From an uncultured Candidatus Saccharibacteria bacterium (lineage in GTDB: Bacteria > Patescibacteriota > Dojkabacteria > B142 > OLB20), in contig CAYWVD010000002.1 of the NCBI GenBank assembly GCA_964461915.1, positions 47,789 to 111,788 of the forward strand: a stretch of DNA of 64,000 nt. The letters are read 5' to 3'. Within the stretch, counting starts at the first letter, position 1. Each line of letters begins with the position of its first letter. Below, piece by piece: positions 939 through 61,760 of the stretch. Made by a program: the position numbers and the translations under genes. The notes below the pieces were generated by a model. It made no database searches. It was not told where the DNA came from and saw nothing but the letters and a program-made list of their open reading frames with translations.

Positions 939-3557
939 TTAAAATCCGAAATCTATTTTTTTCTTTTTTCGCCCCCTCTTTTTCATTTTAGTAATTTGGA
1001 GTAATTCTAAATCCGATATCTGAAGCTTTTGCTCAACCATCATTGTTGCTTCTGTAATGAATTGGGTAAGGCCGGCATCTAAAAATGATTTAATAAAATC
1101 ATTATTAAGTTTTTCTCCCCTATAAAGGACAAATGGCATAGCCATATTTGAATTTGAAAGTTCAATAATATATCTCACAAAACTCACGATATTTTTATCA
1201 AGTCCAGTATTGAATTTTCCGGTGATAGAAAATAACAATTCGTTTAAGTCAATTAATAATCCATCTAGTGAGTTATTTTCCACCAAACTTTTAGCATTTA
1301 GGGCTGAATATGAATTATTCACAACTCCAAGCAATTTGAAAGTGCTGGATCTTCGAATACCTTTGGCAGTAACCTCTTTTTTTAATTCTATTAGTTCGGA
1401 CTCTGTGCAGACATCACCAAAAGCTAGCCAGACAGACCTAAAATTATCTTTATTCCTCAAATTAAGCACTAATTCGATATCAAGATTCAATAATTCTATA
1501 GTCTTATCCTGTAATGAATATTGTTCTTTGACTTGTTTGGAGAACGATTGAATAATAATGTGATTTAAATGTGAGAGATTGAAAATATTACGGATCAAAG
1601 CCATAGCCTCTTGAATGTATAATTCTTGTAGATTTTTATTTATCAAGAGGTCTCTTGGATCGTAGCCTAAAGACTTCATAAGATCTGAAGTAACCAAGAA
1701 ATATCCTTGTGAATTTCTATGATCGATTAAAAGATTTGAAAAATCTAAATATTGCCAAAAATCTGAAGTCGTTTTGATTGGAACATTAGCCGGATCATCA
1801 TATAATTTAAGTGGCAACTTCGCAGATAATCTGTCCTGAGCTTTTTCAGCATTCTTATCAACCATACCTCTTCGATCAACCTTTAGCTCTGTCAGATCTT
1901 TGACTCCAGCTCCTAATAGGACATCACCATTTTCAGGATCCAAAGTTATTACCTCTTTATCGTGTAGCACTTCGAAAGCATTTTTAATACCATGAATAAC
2001 CGGTACTCTAACATTTTCTAACGAAGCTTCACTAATCGCCGATTCAATTACGGCTCCTTTTACGGAATTAATATAATGTGAATCGGCCGATTTGAAAGTT
2101 TTTAATATCAAAATTTCATCACCTGTTAAATCTTCCATGTCATAATCGGCAAAAACAAAGTGGGCTAATCCAAATTTCACTTTATTCTTATGCCCCTTAC
2201 CTTTTAAAATCTTTGTTAACTTATCAATTGGTTCAACATCAACAACGATCTTATCTTCAACAATCGGTTCATTCTCTTTAATTTTTTCAATTACTTTATC
2301 CTCGTATTCAACTGGATTTTCAAATTCTTCAGATTCCACATCAGGGAGATCTTTCTCTAATGGCTCAATTTTTGGAACTTCTAACTCAATTTCTGACTTT
2401 TTATCTTCTGAATCTTCTTCTGCAACAGGCTCTTTGGACATATTCTCGTTAACCTCTTTTACATAATCTTCGATTTTTAATTTGATATCTTGCTGTTTAT
2501 TGCCGTCTTCATCAGTTGATAAAATTGAATCAAGTTTTTCTTGAACTTTAAATGATTTTAATGGGAACATTTTTGCCACATCAACATTGGTTTCATAATC
2601 GTTGCTTTCCATAAAGAATACCCGCCCCGATTCAATACACCAAGAGATTTCTTGAGGGCTACCTGTTATTTCAATTATTCTCGAGGCATAGTCGAACAGC
2701 AAATACAGATGCCTATCATCTAGCTTTGATCTTTTTTGCCAAACTGGAGAGATATTAACTTTCATGTAAGGCTCTTTTGCATCTGATCTACTTTTAACGA
2801 CATACATAAAGTCCTGACTGATAACTCTTTTTTCAATAACTTCACCAGTCCTTTTGTCGATTAAATAACTATCGGGAATTACTTCGTTGAAAATATTTCC
2901 ATTATCTAATCCCCAAATAGCTTGTATTTCAATAACTGTAGGGTCGTGATCTGTTGTATTTACTGTATAGATTTTACCCGAAATTTCTGCGTGAACGAGT
3001 TTTTGAACAACAACTGCTTCGGTTAAATAACCTTCATAGCCGATCTTTCCACGATACATTAAGGCATTAGGACTGAAAAAATCAGCCCAAATTTCTTTGA
3101 TACTTTCTAATAGATTTTCAAAGCCTGATATGCCAATAATACTCTCAATCCCACCTTTTATGGAAAGCTTAAGTTCATTATTAATTGACGATACTCTTGC
3201 ATTTACCGACCCTTCAGAGAATCCAACAAATCCTGAATATGCCTTTTTTAAAGGTTGTTTGATTAAATCCGGAAAAACTGATTTTTTAAATGCCTCATGA
3301 ATCGATTCACTAGCAATTTGGATTTGATCGATATCCTGATAATCCAACGAATTTATTATTGATCCGATTTTATCTACCAAATCATTAGCTATCAAAAAAT
3401 CATCAAAAGCTTTTGTAGTTAAAACGAATCCGACCGGTAATGTTATGCCTTTTTCAAGCGCAGATTTTATAAAAAAAGCCAATTGCCCAACTGATTCTTG
3501 GTTTGAATTTACTAAATTAGCCAAATTGACTATGTATTGTTTTTGAGAGTCGGGCAT
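939..3557 (-). CDS. PEP-utilising enzyme family protein (PEP synthase / pyruvate phosphate dikinase-like)
   Basis: The N-terminus matches the PPDK_N PEP/pyruvate-binding domain (LPVGFVLTTKAFDDFL). The centre has a mobile phospho-His domain-like segment (ADSHYINSVKGAVIESA...VIHG...DPENGDV). A long acidic insert (EEDSEDKKSEIELE...) separates the two. Confidence 0.6.
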   Translation of the reverse strand: MPDSQKQYIVNLANLVNSNQESVGQLAFFIKSALEKGITLPVGFVLTTKAFDDFLIANDLVDKIGSIINSLDYQDIDQIQIASESIHEAFKKSVFPDLIKQPLKKAYSGFVGFSEGSVNARVSSINNELKLSIKGGIESIIGISGFENLLESIKEIWADFFSPNALMYRGKIGYEGYLTEAVVVQKLVHAEISGKIYTVNTTDHDPTVIEIQAIWGLDNGNIFNEVIPDSYLIDKRTGEVIEKRVISQDFMYVVKSRSDAKEPYMKVNISPVWQKRSKLDDRHLYLLFDYASRIIEITGSPQEISWCIESGRVFFMESNDYETNVDVAKMFPLKSFKVQEKLDSILSTDEDGNKQQDIKLKIEDYVKEVNENMSKEPVAEEDSEDKKSEIELEVPKIEPLEKDLPDVESEEFENPVEYEDKVIEKIKENEPIVEDKIVVDVEPIDKLTKILKGKGHKNKVKFGLAHFVFADYDMEDLTGDEILILKTFKSADSHYINSVKGAVIESAISEASLENVRVPVIHGIKNAFEVLHDKEVITLDPENGDVLLGAGVKDLTELKVDRRGMVDKNAEKAQDRLSAKLPLKLYDDPANVPIKTTSDFWQYLDFSNLLIDHRNSQGYFLVTSDLMKSLGYDPRDLLINKNLQELYIQEAMALIRNIFNLSHLNHIIIQSFSKQVKEQYSLQDKTIELLNLDIELVLNLRNKDNFRSVWLAFGDVCTESELIELKKEVTAKGIRRSSTFKLLGVVNNSYSALNAKSLVENNSLDGLLIDLNELLFSITGKFNTGLDKNIVSFVRYIIELSNSNMAMPFVLYRGEKLNNDFIKSFLDAGLTQFITEATMMVEQKLQISDLELLQITKMKKRGRKKKKIDFGF

Positions 3558-33329: not shown

Positions 33330-33349
33330 TAATTAATTCTATTAAAAGA

Positions 33350-57413: not shown

Positions 57414-57941
57414 CTACCACAATTGGGGCCAAATTATCGCATCTAGTACCAATGTATGAAAGGTAAACCAAATCATAGAAATCAATGCTGAATAATAGAA
57501 AAAGCCCTTTGTCTTTGGAGCTGTCTTCCATAAAACAATTGCAACACCAAATGAAGCAAGCCCAACTATGGCAAGTACTAGCCTAATTGCTACCCACAAC
57601 AATGGTGATGGATTTGCGACCATCAGATTTACTAATGGCATCCAAAGAGCCGATGCTCCAAGGATTAAGGAAAATAATATCAATATCATCTTTTCGCTAT
57701 ACTTGAATTCTCTTGAAAACCTTTTTCCGGTAAGATTTGACATTATATAGCCAAAAAAGACGAAATATCCAACTGCGCAAACCAACATTGACATTGTATA
57801 TACTGGACGGATATTCTCAGGAACCCCACCCCATAAGACTTCTACTCCACTACCACCCTGGAGCCCAAGATAGTAACTACCTAGTACCAAAATTCCACCG
57901 ACAATATTTATTGCCAAGAAAATCTTTTGATTTAACTTCAT
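57414..57941 (-). CDS. Hypothetical 4-5 TM membrane protein
   Basis: 175 aa, hydrophobic. Confidence 0.5.
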   Translation of the reverse strand: MKLNQKIFLAINIVGGILVLGSYYLGLQGGSGVEVLWGGVPENIRPVYTMSMLVCAVGYFVFFGYIMSNLTGKRFSREFKYSEKMILILFSLILGASALWMPLVNLMVANPSPLLWVAIRLVLAIVGLASFGVAIVLWKTAPKTKGFFYYSALISMIWFTFHTLVLDAIIWPQLW

Positions 57942-58006
57942 TTTTAAATTGTTTAAAAATTTAAGGTCTTAGAGTTCCTCCAAAAACCTGCCATGCTAGC
58001 AAAGAT

Positions 58007-58190
58007 TTAGCGACCAAACTTAAGATTATATAAACACGTTCTCCAAAAAGGTAGTCCTTCCAGGGACCAATCTTTTTGTACTGAAGAACCATATTTACGG
58101 CAAATATAAATTCCAGATGCATTATTATTCACATATTCACCCGTAAAAGGCGCTTCAGTGCCTTTATCAATTATTACTCTTTTTTCTTCC
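58007..58190 (-). pseudogene. msrB: Truncated N-terminal remnant of a methionine sulfoxide reductase B (MsrB/SelR) gene
   Basis: [33 protein letters not shown]...KDWSLEGLPFW matches the MsrB N-terminus (LTPEEY.VtrekGTErpFtGey...GiYvC...KFdSGtGWPSF). It stops about 70 aa short of the catalytic C-terminal Cys. The upstream part of the listed ORF runs into a GC-rich, non-coding-looking element. Confidence 0.45.
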
Positions 58191-58235
58191 GGAGTTAGTT
58201 GATTCATTAATTTTATTGTTAAATCTACGGAACAC

Positions 58236-58392
58236 CCGTCCGGGTTCCAGCCACTCTCGTGCCTTTTCGACTGCACTTCGTTTGTCTCAAAGACAAGATC
58301 GGAAGGGCGCCTTAGCAGGCATCCCTCCGTGTAACGCTCAACTTCGTTACACTCGTTTCGCTAACACGGGACAGCTGGGTCTGGAACCCAGA
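58236..58392. ncRNA. GC-rich, highly structured ~160-nt element (candidate ncRNA or riboswitch; strand undetermined)
   Basis: Its GC stands out from the AT-rich flanks. A terminal 9-bp helix (GGGTTCCAG at 58241-58249 pairs with CTGGAACCC at 58380-58388), then CCAGC/GCTGG and CGTG/CACG extensions. Internal hairpins include GTGTAACG-CTCAACTT-CGTTACAC, TTGTCT-CAA-AGACAA and CGGAAGGG...CCCTCCG. The ORFs overlapping it on both strands look spurious. Confidence 0.35.
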
Positions 58393-58498
58393 TGCCACTA
58401 GACAAATTATACTATCAGCGGGAAAATGAGACAAATGAGACAGTATAAAAAAGGATAAGTTTATGTCTCATTTTATTAACAACGTCCTGTAATGTTTA

Positions 58499-59110
58499 AT
58501 GATGAAAACCATATTATTTGCAACTACAAATAAGAATAAAATTGCTAGACTTAAGAACTTTATCCAAAACGATAAGTTAAACATAATTTCTTTGGATGAG
58601 CTAGGTTATCATATTAATGAACCAGAGGAATCTGGAAGTACCCCTAGTCAAATAGCTGCAAATAAAGCGCTTTACTATTGGAGCAAACTTAAAGTAAAAA
58701 TACCAGTTTTGGCGCAGGACGACACAATCGAATTCCTGGGTGTTAAGGAATTGGCAGGCAAGAGGCTGAGTATAAAGACCCCAGTTGTAAAAGAATATGG
58801 GGAATTTAATGATGAAAACGCAATAAAGTTTTATACATCAATCGCGAATAAATATGGAGGAGAGATAAAAATGAGGTTTAATTATGGGTTTGCGATATGT
58901 GTTGATGGAAAGGCGAAGTCCAGAAAAGCAGTTTTGAATTGCAAATTGGTAAATCAAGTAAGCAAAATCATCGATCCGGGATATTTCTTAACATCAATTA
59001 TGAGAGTAGAAATTGATAATAAGATAGTTTTTTATAGTGAACTCAGCCTGGATCAACAAGCTAGAATAGACAATAGCCTAGCACGAGCTGTCTCATTTCT
59101 TCTTAAGTAG
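58499..59110 (+). CDS. Ham1/RdgB-family non-canonical NTP pyrophosphatase-like protein
   Basis: ILFATTNKNKIARL matches Ham1 (vfaTgNkgKlrEf), and PSQIAANKALYYW...PVLAQDDTIEF matches the Ham1 substrate-binding block. Confidence 0.55.
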   Translation: MMKTILFATTNKNKIARLKNFIQNDKLNIISLDELGYHINEPEESGSTPSQIAANKALYYWSKLKVKIPVLAQDDTIEFLGVKELAGKRLSIKTPVVKEYGEFNDENAIKFYTSIANKYGGEIKMRFNYGFAICVDGKAKSRKAVLNCKLVNQVSKIIDPGYFLTSIMRVEIDNKIVFYSELSLDQQARIDNSLARAVSFLLK

Positions 59111-59653: not shown

Positions 59654-59772
59654 GTGGAGCATATACTGGTGAAAATGCCCAAAATTATCATCAAACAAAT
59701 GGGAAGTTGATATTTTTGAATCCGGCGATAGAAAGGGCTATACCAAATATCGGACACGGTAAGGAGAGGGAT

Positions 59773-59802
59773 GGGTCTTGCAGGACTTTCGATGATTTGG
59801 CG
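59773..59802. repeat. 30-nt exact direct repeat, copy 1 (GGGTCTTGCAGGACTTTCGATGATTTGGCG), with ~20 nt of further imperfect similarity upstream
   Basis: Identical to 61601..61630. Directly beside it (59803-59835, minus strand) is a degenerate tRNA 3'-end-like segment GGTTCCAGACTCGGGTATCCCGCCA. Confidence 0.7.
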
Positions 59803-59847
59803 GGATACCCGAGTCTGGAACCGTAGTTACTTCAAATATTATTTGAA

Positions 59848-61443
59848 ATGGGTTATCTTTATTATATCTATCTATTATACCTTTTTAAAATGGATGTTCA
59901 TAATTTTATAAAAAATCCTCTAAACAGGAAGTGGCTTATTGCAGGAGGGGTCCTCGTGGGATTAATTATAATATTAGTTATAGTAGTTATTACTCTGAAC
60001 ATAGTAAATAGAAATAGTAGTAATAGTAATACTAGCGGGTCATTACCCCTTGAAGGATTAGGGGATGATTCTGATTCAGCCTTAACAAGGCTAACTCAAA
60101 AATATGACCTTTTGGAAAATGAACCAACTTATGATCTTTACGGGGAAGTTGGTTATCAGGGAACAGATGCTTCTTATGCTGCTGTACAAACACAATCAGA
60201 CTTTAGTCCGGAATCTGAGGATTGTTATCCCTCACATGTTGCAACCTGCCTCAATTTAGGTAGAGAAAAGACAGTTATGCCAAATCATTCGACAGTAAAC
60301 ATTAACGCTTCCAGTTATGTAAAAAGTTTTGATGAAAAATCAGGCTTACCTGATGGGCTTCCCATGGAGCTTAATGCTTATGCGCTTCTGCCGGAGGGAT
60401 CATTGGTTGCGTTATCAGGCACCAAAGCTCAGTTTAATTTTTATGATAATGAAACAAGGGTAGTACAAATGTCGGGATCGGCATATTATCGTGTAAAACC
60501 TCAGGAAAAAGGAAAGGTGTTTACCATTCAAGCCGGAGACAGGCTGATAGAGGTAGATAATGCGGAAGTGTATATTGAAGTGTCTTATAACAAAGAAGAT
60601 ACTCTTGCCCAAACCACTATATTTAACAATCAAAAAGTCGGAGTTGATATTAGCAAGGAGGAATATGAACAAAAAGCAGGAGAATCAAGATCCAAAATCT
60701 ATGATGTGCTTATTTACGTAACTTCGGGCAGCTCGAAGCTTTATTCAAGGGCGGATAAAAATACTGTTTTAACTGAGCTCACTGAAGGAAACCCCTACTC
60801 AATGTTTAAATTTAAAGACTATGGTAAAAGAGGTGCGTTTGAGTCTTCACAAGAGGAATCTGACGGATCTAGAAAAGGCCTGGCAAGTAATGACAGTTTC
60901 TTGAATCATTTAAACTTTTCAATGGTAAATTATGGCTTGGGAAACTTTAGTAATGTATCCCAGGAAGACCTGGTCAAAATGCTATTAATTAATTTCGATA
61001 CTGTTGAACTGCAAGCGACTAGATATGCTTTATGGTACAGGAAAGATTTGGAGGACTTGTCGCAGCAGTGGAATACTCTGGTCCAAAAGATGAGTTCCTG
61101 CAACCCCGGCTGGTATAAAACTTCCACCGGAGGATGCTGTCCGGATGGATTTGCCAGTGATCCCACAACCAAAACCTGTACTAAAACAACATATTATTAT
61201 TATTGTGATGCAGGCTACACCTTAGGCTCTGATAATAAATGTTATTCCCAGGATAAATCAAGGACACAAACCCCAACATATAATCCGGGAACAGGAGCTG
61301 GTGGCGGACTCTGTGTCGATAAGAGTAAACCCGCTTCATTCCAGTTATGCAAAATGGGAACCAGTGTTGGGACAGCAAAGATGAGCGGTTCTAAATGTTG
61401 TTTTAATGAGGTAGCATCGCCTACTTTAGAATCTATTAAGTAG
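59848..61443 (+). CDS. Membrane-anchored (type II) protein with a Cys-rich C-terminal region; the only gene between the two direct repeats
   Basis: It has an N-terminal TM (WLIAGGVLVGLIIILVIVVITL) and a C-terminal ~110 aa with 14 or more Cys (CCPDGF...YYYYCDAGY...CKMG...CCFNE). Local GC is slightly above the window average. Confidence 0.55.
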   Translation: MGYLYYIYLLYLFKMDVHNFIKNPLNRKWLIAGGVLVGLIIILVIVVITLNIVNRNSSNSNTSGSLPLEGLGDDSDSALTRLTQKYDLLENEPTYDLYGEVGYQGTDASYAAVQTQSDFSPESEDCYPSHVATCLNLGREKTVMPNHSTVNINASSYVKSFDEKSGLPDGLPMELNAYALLPEGSLVALSGTKAQFNFYDNETRVVQMSGSAYYRVKPQEKGKVFTIQAGDRLIEVDNAEVYIEVSYNKEDTLAQTTIFNNQKVGVDISKEEYEQKAGESRSKIYDVLIYVTSGSSKLYSRADKNTVLTELTEGNPYSMFKFKDYGKRGAFESSQEESDGSRKGLASNDSFLNHLNFSMVNYGLGNFSNVSQEDLVKMLLINFDTVELQATRYALWYRKDLEDLSQQWNTLVQKMSSCNPGWYKTSTGGCCPDGFASDPTTKTCTKTTYYYYCDAGYTLGSDNKCYSQDKSRTQTPTYNPGTGAGGGLCVDKSKPASFQLCKMGTSVGTAKMSGSKCCFNEVASPTLESIK

Positions 61444-61600
61444 TTGAGGGAAATAAGAATATCCTTTTATTAGATACAGGATAATGATCCCTTGGGTGGA
61501 TTTTGATGTTTTTCACCTCTCCAGGCTATAGTTTGAGTTATGGGGTAATTCGAGTCCCCAATCCGCCAGGGACTTAAGCATTCTCACGGAAGGGGGACGG

Positions 61601-61630
61601 GGGTCTTGCAGGACTTTCGATGATTTGGCG
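61601..61630. repeat. 30-nt exact direct repeat, copy 2, forming the immediate 3' flank of tRNA-Ser on the minus strand
   Basis: Identical to 59773..59802. Its last 5 nt overlap the tRNA 3' end (GCCA). Confidence 0.7.
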
Positions 61631-61715
61631 GAAGGGACAGGATTCGAACCTGCGACCCGATTTCTCGGGTACCGCTTTTCGAGAGCGGCTCTTTCGACCA
61701 CTCAGACACCCTTCC
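61626..61715 (-). tRNA. tRNA-Ser (anticodon CGA), type II with a long variable arm; CCA is encoded
   Basis: Minus strand folds as a cloverleaf: GGAAGGG-TG-TCT-GAGTGGTCGAA-AGA-G-CCGCT-CTCGAAA-AGCGG-[TACCCGAGAAATCGGGT]-CGCAGG-TTCGAAT-CCTGT-CCCTTCC-G-CCA. It has a 7-bp acceptor stem, a TTCGAAT T-loop and anticodon loop CT-CGA-AA. The ORF 61513..61701 overlapping it looks spurious. Confidence 0.85.
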
Positions 61716-61760
61716 TCGTCGTGGCTTTTTAATTATACTATAGAATTATGGGAACTTTAA

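Follow-up and report, generated by a model that had tools for sequence, protein, structure and literature searches.

What is the GC-rich block that separates a Ham1-like gene from msrB in AT-rich surroundings, and which of the two genes, if either, does it accompany? The window examined here, by which we mean the whole 64,000-nucleotide (nt) stretch taken from contig CAYWVD010000002.1 of an uncultured Candidatus Saccharibacteria bacterium (assembly GCA_964461915.1), carries this block at 58227-58391. An earlier note, made from the letters alone, had proposed a structured RNA on either strand, perhaps a riboswitch or leader for the plus-strand Ham1-like and NUDIX genes. We find that a transcribed structured RNA is the most economical reading of the block. 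Tentatively, at a little short of an even chance, we take it to be the structured 5' leader of an msrB(-msrA) transcript, read from the minus strand and belonging to no known RNA family.

At 56% GC between flanks of 33% and 30%, in a window with 34.8% GC overall, the block bears out the compositional contrast first described for it. Its GC maximum of 0.567 per 120 nt lies four standard deviations above the window mean (0.348, s.d. 0.055), making it the strongest non-coding GC island in the window apart from tRNA. Every helix that had been named lies at the position given: GGGTTCCAG at 58242 is complementary to CTGGAACCC at 58381, CCAGC (58247) to GCTGG (58374) and CGTG (58258) to CACG (58365), and both the GTGTAACG (58329)/CGTTACAC (58345) stem and the CGGAAGGG (58300)/CCCTCCG (58323) hairpin are present. 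Strong structure was likewise upheld, with predicted folds of -75.3 kcal/mol on the minus strand (z -4.25, the centroid being near the minimum free energy, or MFE, structure) and -63.0 kcal/mol on the plus strand (z -3.6), and 0 of 200 dinucleotide shuffles folding as well on either. The terminal helix had been put at 9 bp; it exists, but on the better-folding minus strand it comprises 11 bp (CUGGGUUCCAG/CUGGAACCCGG, with one U.G pair). Pairing of 58391..58381 with 58250..58240 is predicted with probabilities of 0.94-0.95, and, counting interruptions, the closing helix is predicted to reach ~18 bp around a multi-branch core, whose parts are as follows.

58329..58352, minus strand: hairpin P3, an 8-bp stem GUGUAACG/CGUUACAC with the 8-nt loop AAGUUGAG, in both the MFE and the centroid fold.
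58301..58328, minus strand: hairpin P4, GGAGGG-A-UGCCU GCUA AGGCG-C-CCUUCC, 11 bp, from fold prediction.
58260..58295, minus strand: 3' sub-domain with an ambiguous fold, from the MFE structure and inspection.
58240..58250, minus strand: 3' strand of the closing helix (CUGGAACCCGG), from pair probabilities; it lies inside a 139-nt segment described below.

Fold prediction shows P3 and P4 to be robust and the 3' sub-domain to be less certain. The MFE form of the latter is one long hairpin (UGUCUUU..GAC/GUC..AAAGGCA), and inspection offers an alternative of two hairpins, UUGUCU/AGACAA and GUGC/GCAC.

Judged by protein homology, the block is non-coding. Two open reading frames (ORFs) overlap it, and both are spurious, as had been suspected, because MsrB starts at 58207 and the plus-strand frame has no homologue.

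58216..58401, plus strand: spurious 61-aa ORF running antisense through the element, judged by protein searches.
58007..58207, minus strand: msrB remnant, matching intact msrB over no more than its first ~36 codons (58207..58098; Pfam SelR residues 4-41).

The 61-aa ORF found zero homologues among 5.8 billion protein clusters and, against 1.8 billion representatives, a single spurious summed match to a repeat protein. The 89-aa minus-strand ORF (58007..58276) is MsrB to which a false stretch has been added at the N-terminus. Homologous MsrB proteins have 118 aa and begin MNQLTPEEK, matching the ATG at 58207, the Pfam SelR alignment begins at residue 4 of the ORF starting there, and longer MsrB gene calls in other contigs carry N-terminal extensions unrelated to this one. 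The block is therefore not the N-terminus of MsrB in related genomes, where the protein begins at the 58207 codon.

The block belongs to no described RNA family. Searches used Rfam 15 at both the gathering score and E<=10, over three nested ranges and the related locus L021 introduced below. At the gathering score, cmscan with 4227 families found only tRNA-Ser in the window. At E<=10, over 421 nt and 181 nt on both strands, nothing exceeded 11 bits on the element, and the best overlapping matches, at 10-11 bits against gathering thresholds of 54 and 191, are noise. The Infernal comparison that the earlier note had named as a check thus matched no family, and the faint guanidine-I (ykkC) resemblance it had reported dissolved: neither guanidine-I (ykkC-yxkD, RF00442) nor ykkC subtype 2 gave a covariance-model match at E<=10 on either strand. 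For tRNA, 5S, SRP, 6S, RNase P, tmRNA, ribozymes and known orphan motifs there was Rfam noise only. A resemblance to 5S rRNA (GAAGUUGAGC, CGAGAGUGG) was also rejected, with no RF00001 match and with scores equal to those of shuffles in local and global alignments to Escherichia coli and Bacillus subtilis 5S sequences. ARAGORN reported only tRNA-Ser in the window (61626-61715) and nothing at the element. In the literature we found no relevant structured RNA or riboswitch in Patescibacteria, nor a riboswitch candidate upstream of msr genes; the group I introns of Patescibacteria tRNA genes sit in the anticodon loop (PMC13011429) and are not applicable here.

The RNA strand is most likely the minus strand, as judged from predicted folds and promoter matches. 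Over the 167 nt compared, the minus strand folds to -72.4 and the plus strand to -61.7 kcal/mol, ~11 kcal/mol apart. Mirrored onto the plus strand, the minus-strand structure reaches -60.9 kcal/mol, because several G.U pairs become A.C mismatches, as the G.U and U.G pairs of P4 would. Two further features frame the element on this strand.

58406..58434, minus strand: promoter-like site TTGTCT-17-TATAAT with a probable start at ~58399, from a consensus scan.
58208..58239, minus strand: 3' tail (the ACGGGUGUUCCGU hairpin) and AU-rich spacer to the msrB start, with no terminator or Shine-Dalgarno sequence in scans.

The promoter-like site is the best sigma-70-like match in 57900-58700 (10/12 positions), its predicted start lies ~8 nt ahead of the closing helix, and the promoter region upstream of msrB is kept in the sister lineage L023. 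Its -10 context, TAGTATAAT, also stands ahead of tRNA-Ser at 61740; three occurrences in the window are about the number expected by chance. For the plus strand, the promoter-like sites (58399-58427 and 58476-58503) fall on the downstream side of the block. A sequence scan between the element and the msrB start at 58207 found no terminator-like site; a canonical terminator is seen by inspection elsewhere in the genome, after rpsG near 33330. Since neither a terminator nor a second promoter intervenes before 58207, any msrB transcript would carry the element. From these scans, together with gene order in three lineages, we infer that the element is transcribed together with msrB. On the minus strand, the element precedes msrB and not the Ham1-like and NUDIX genes.

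The association with msrB is seen again in a close relative. Members of the 90%-identity clusters of MsrB, MsrA and DUF35 led to the lineages L021-L024, whose contigs we compared. In L021 (GCA_964562165.1) the order is thiolase, DUF35, tRNA-Ser, element, msrB, msrA, with no Ham1/NUDIX pair, and a covariance model of the element (R1) matches there at 164.9 bits. Thus, the element goes with msrB, and the earlier proposal of a leader for the Ham1-like and NUDIX genes did not survive. A plus-strand riboswitch of the guanidine-I/ykkC kind, or another leader, for these genes has some points in its favour: the Ham1-like start codon follows 95 nt after the block, a NUDIX gene is near, and two short strings faintly like conserved ykkC blocks, CGGGTTCC and ACGGGACA, do exist. 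Some ykkC subtype-2 riboswitches are associated with NUDIX hydrolases. We regard this reading as effectively refuted and leave it next to no probability: no ykkC or other Rfam model matches at E<=10 on either strand, the likely strand is the opposite one, on which the fold is better and the only good promoter-like site stands upstream of the block, and the element stays with msrB where NUDIX is missing. Ham1 homologues of 46-60% identity stand among other genes, without such an element beside them, and in the only GTDB species-genome relative of the Ham1-like protein, a Candidatus Shapirobacteria metagenome-assembled genome (38% identity), the GC islands are all tRNAs.

L021 differs from the window at the 5' side of the element. 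Its tRNA-Ser is intact (56.4 bits) and ends ...CCCTTCCG, immediately after which comes TGTTAGCGAAACGAG..., corresponding to the element from 58366 of the window on. The tRNA T arm here replaces the 5' strand of the closing helix, and only 7/11 positions can pair; P3 is predicted in L021 also, despite the missing closing helix. The junction is best read as a probable deletion from the last base of the tRNA to the CCG before the segment, because L026 and L028 show the window-type tRNA-Ser 3' flank to be the usual one. The tRNA-Ser(CGA) of L021 (1526-1620) has no encoded CCA, and the fusing deletion ends at its discriminator base; the window tRNA-Ser encodes CCA (…CCCTTCCGCCA). Downstream of the window tRNA-Ser, 61483-61625 on the minus strand has ~52% GC, is not significantly structured (z -0.28), has no Rfam match and is kept as the tRNA-Ser 3' flank in L026 and L028.

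Comparison of aligned loci shows a composite element, in which a short older leader and a 139-nt segment meet at a precise indel.

58366..58403, minus strand: older leader part, with the 5' strand of the closing helix (CUGGGUUCCAG, 58391..58381) and the local hairpin CUGGGU/ACCCAG, from homology to L023.
58227..58365, minus strand: GC-rich 139-nt segment, GUUAGCG...GUGUUCCGU, from the indel alignment.

The segment has 55% GC and folds alone with z -2.86. It is present in the lineages of the window (with L001) and L021 and absent in L022-L024, which have an MsrB about 93% identical, the window-type promoter region and msrB spacer, and a short leader with a 13-bp hairpin. The element is composite, because the window minus 58365..58227 aligns collinearly with L023, CCCGT|AGATTTAAC against CCCGT|AGGTTTAAC (junction CCCGT|AG(A/G)TTTAAC). 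A CCGT direct repeat flanks the indel and leaves its boundaries ambiguous by up to 4 nt. The older part has its homologue in the short hairpin of the L023 leader (TGGGTGGCAGAC vs TGGGTTCCAGAC), and its own local hairpin, CUGGGU/ACCCAG, has a predicted -9.9 kcal/mol (z -2.4).

The closing helix spans this junction, with its 5' strand in the older leader and its 3' strand in the inserted segment. By inspection, the window strand CUGGGUUCCAG pairs with the segment strand at 11/11 positions; the L023 strand GUGGGUGGCAG would pair with it at 8/11, but pairs instead with its own local partner GCUUCCC. The older 5' strand differs from L023 at exactly the positions needed for perfect pairing with the segment. 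This difference between the closing helix and the L023 hairpin is the only covariation-like signal that the alignments suggest, and it comes from one event.

Within the segment, the window and L021 differ at two sites, 58279 and 58258, both G to A and both predicted to be unpaired or partner-less; 58279 falls in the 3' sub-domain. An argument for stronger conservation of the core than of the flanks, built on 2 changes in 141 nt where the mean divergence is ~8% (p ~5e-4), was withdrawn because the divergence is mosaic. Across the msrBA-side block, L001 and L021 differ by anything from 0-3 to >30 mismatches per 140 nt, a pattern that suggests recombination between lineages. The block of Ham1, NUDIX and element is 99.3% identical between strain types, and the neighbouring DUF35-thiolase region only 95.6%.

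Strains of the same species show what has become of the downstream genes. An identical Ham1-like protein occurs in fourteen contigs from wastewater-type samples, and the element is 100% identical in all 9 same-species loci that cover it, including strains with intact msrBA; some of these contigs have a complete MsrB of 118 aa with MsrA behind it. In the window, homology to L001 stops at 58098, beyond which the remainder of msrB, and msrA entirely, have given way to other sequence. This replacement (57414-58207) holds two ORFs without a Pfam match, one of 473 aa and one of 175 aa that is membrane-like. The genome is bacterial, with rpmH-rnpA (recognized by eye) and, by Pfam, a sigma-70 factor, FtsZ and further housekeeping genes; it is patescibacterial by its short MsrB, a type widespread in Patescibacteria, and by the Shapirobacteria relative of its Ham1-like protein. 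Farther along, a 1.83-kb block (about 59804-61633), holding a 531-aa ORF (59848-61443) without a Pfam match, is missing from the same-species contigs L001, L003, L004 and L009. It is flanked by a direct repeat of ~49 bp (59755-59803 / 61585-61633) with a 31-bp perfect core, which includes the CCA end and 3' flank of tRNA-Ser, and it looks like an insertion at the tRNA 3' end, although no integrase was seen.

A switch would need an expression platform, and the scans found none: there is no terminator and no supported sequestration of the start codon. Alternative pairings can be drawn on paper, from the closing helix (a:c), through its 3' strand with the following GGGUGUUCC (c:d), to the tail with the start codon (d). 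This riboswitch-like chain was rejected, its downstream hairpins being at chance level and not conserved. A Shine-Dalgarno-like motif precedes only 1/34 window start codons, and initiation regions are AU-rich; translation in this organism thus appears, from its start regions, to be independent of Shine-Dalgarno sequences.

The leader that we favour would work as follows. Transcription would start near 58399 from the sigma-70-like promoter (58434..58406) and read through into msrB, and the RNA is predicted to close the 11-bp helix around a multi-branch core of P3, P4 and the 3' sub-domain. Such a leader would have been built by the addition of a 139-nt GC-rich module to an older 5' hairpin, and its closed, very stable domain would act in cis on the msrBA mRNA. 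Because the genome appears not to use Shine-Dalgarno sequences, the likeliest effect would be on stability or processing of the mRNA 5' end, or on access to the AU-rich initiation region, possibly in response to a bound factor. Since no statistically supported switch platform was found, we give a static structural role and a sensor role the same likelihood.

Several observations weigh against the leader. The msrB-msrA locus of L023 does without the segment (although in L022 a frameshift seems to affect msrA), L021 is missing the 5' strand of the closing helix yet keeps the segment, and in the window strain the msrB downstream of the element is a truncated pseudogene. Only two versions of the segment are available, with two one-sided changes outside the robust helices, and these hold no covariation evidence. 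Their 98.6% identity is unexceptional, as 17% of 140-nt windows in the L001-L021 block have <=2 mismatches. The c:d hairpin (z -0.98) and the pairing of d with the start codon (z -0.12) are no better than shuffles, and the latter is not kept in L021 (z +0.91). Additionally, the msrB genes of distant relatives stand directly behind another gene with no leader, and none of 10 further Patescibacteria msrB loci from metagenomes has the element; such a distribution rules out a conserved regulator of msrB. What remains is an orphan confined to two very close lineages, and on present evidence a leader and a tolerated insertion are indistinguishable.

The insertion is the main rival. It holds that the 139-nt segment is a selfish or neutral arrival at a YCCG(T) site in the msrB leader, perhaps the footprint of a small non-autonomous mobile element or a piece of foreign or structured-RNA DNA, tolerated without host function and closed into a helix partly by accident; we consider it somewhat unlikely. 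The presence/absence polymorphism is clean, with the 4-nt direct repeat CCGT on both sides, and in L021 the same left boundary adjoins the tRNA-Ser 3' end ...TTCCG, the segment itself ending TTCCGT. The GC content of the segment is foreign to the genome, its conservation does not exceed the local background, it stands unchanged upstream of an msrB pseudogene, and the locus by tRNA-Ser is a rearrangement hotspot, with the 1.83-kb insertion and the replaced msrB/msrA. Against it, the segment is single-copy as far as it was searched for: there is no second copy in the 64-kb window, the R1 model found none in any other locus fetched, and matches numbered 0 in JGI metagenomes (a transition-tolerant P3-P4 pattern), in viral contigs (three 18-19-mers) and in phages and plasmids (blastn). 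By inspection its ends carry no terminal inverted repeats, and no transposase or integrase family appeared in the 40 ORFs scanned against Pfam, 11 further ORFs of >=120 aa lying outside that scan. A microhomology deletion in L023 would leave such a 4-nt repeat just as readily, and the older 5' strand has two neighbouring differences that suit pairing with the segment, a hint that the closed fold has been selected for.

The same fold could belong to an independent small non-coding RNA gene, acting in trans or as a protein partner and processed out of the msrB message, which would have its own strong promoter in the window lineage and be co-transcribed with tRNA-Ser in L021. This we think unlikely. 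The genome has canonical terminators elsewhere, but none marks a 3' end here; the element is absent from the sister lineage and all other relatives examined and matches no Rfam family, and L021 is without the 5' strand of its closing helix. In favour of a small RNA are a GC island whose composition is tRNA-like, the only non-coding one in the window besides tRNA-Ser and its GC-rich 3' flank, the -10 context TAGTATAAT that the tRNA-Ser gene also has, the position directly after tRNA-Ser in L021, like a co-transcribed stable RNA, and the closed multi-helix fold typical of stable RNAs. A tRNA also enters an idea that we hold very improbable, namely that the 5' part of the element is the decayed 3' half of a tRNA, an old att-site scar left by an element that integrated at a tRNA gene, the block being just what was adjacent to that tRNA. 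By inspection, 58391..58367 is laid out as a T stem (CUGGG/CCCAG) with a 7-nt loop (UUCCAGA), a 7-nt acceptor strand and a discriminator G; the real tRNA-Ser ends at exactly the same junction in L021, CTGTCCC and GGTTC are common to the leader and tRNA-Ser, and the tRNA-Ser 3' end is an insertion hotspot. Yet neither ARAGORN nor the Rfam tRNA model (E<=10) reports anything there, alignment of the leader to tRNA-Ser is marginal (51/1000 shuffles score equally, p ~0.05), the L023 version of the stretch has no T-arm-like hairpin, and the L021 junction is explained by a CCG-microhomology deletion that had to spare the tRNA. A scar would, moreover, not account for the 139-nt segment. More speculatively, and in our view distinctly improbable, the segment may be a structured RNA module of a kind not described before and complete in itself, around which the host leader co-adapted so that a helix closed over it. 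It would then be either an aptamer of a new class that controls methionine-sulfoxide repair genes in Patescibacteria, or a small mobile structured element of a new type, with precise insertion 3' of YCCG(T) motifs, tRNA 3' ends among them.

Two side observations concern other msrB loci. The contigs L025 and L029, from two independent assemblies, begin inside the first msrB codons and have no upstream sequence, which is consistent with assemblers having been confused by strain heterogeneity just upstream, at the position of the element. In L034 (~350-1000, Ga0209542_10034205) and L037 (~2850-3500, Ga0209541_10038564) another patescibacterial msrB, an internally deleted pseudogene (MNKLTPEEKRVILDKGTEAPFTGEYVSISMKFISGI*), is preceded by a GC-rich region full of perfect hairpins, for example CCACCGGGTGT...ACACCCGGTGG and CCGCGGGGGGAGCCGCGG.

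Set beside known systems, the element has partial likenesses. It resembles riboswitch aptamers and structured operon leaders in its place between a promoter-like site and a start codon, in a closing helix P1 around a hairpin junction, in a size of about 150-170 nt and in being GC-rich for its genome; it differs in belonging to no known family, in its restriction to two sister lineages, in lacking a supported platform and in that the msrB genes of related bacteria have no such leader. Miniature inverted-repeat transposable elements and IS200/IS605-derived palindrome-associated elements share with it a ~140-nt presence/absence polymorphism with a short flanking direct repeat, a position in an intergenic leader, strong structure if transcribed, and a composition unlike that of the host. 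The segment departs from them in its single copy, its plain ends and the lack of a transposase found nearby, and in a fold that is a branched junction and not one long hairpin. Some bacterial mRNAs, for example with the ompA 5' untranslated region, carry stabilizing stem-loops at their 5' end. The likeness here is a stable structure near the predicted 5' end, where the sister lineage has its 13-bp hairpin; however, the element is far larger than protection needs, and about 8 unpaired nt precede its helix.

To our knowledge, the regulatory RNAs of Patescibacteria (Candidate Phyla Radiation) are almost unexplored. The genomes of these bacteria are tiny, and a large, GC-rich, stable leader stands out in one that apparently makes no use of Shine-Dalgarno sequences. 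If the segment is a tolerated insertion, it calls for caution, as a GC-rich, highly structured intergenic block with spurious ORFs on both strands does not, in an AT-rich genome, of itself prove a conserved RNA gene. If the element is functional, it would represent a new RNA family tied to the repair of oxidized methionine, and would illustrate the grafting of a structured module into a leader hairpin that was already there.

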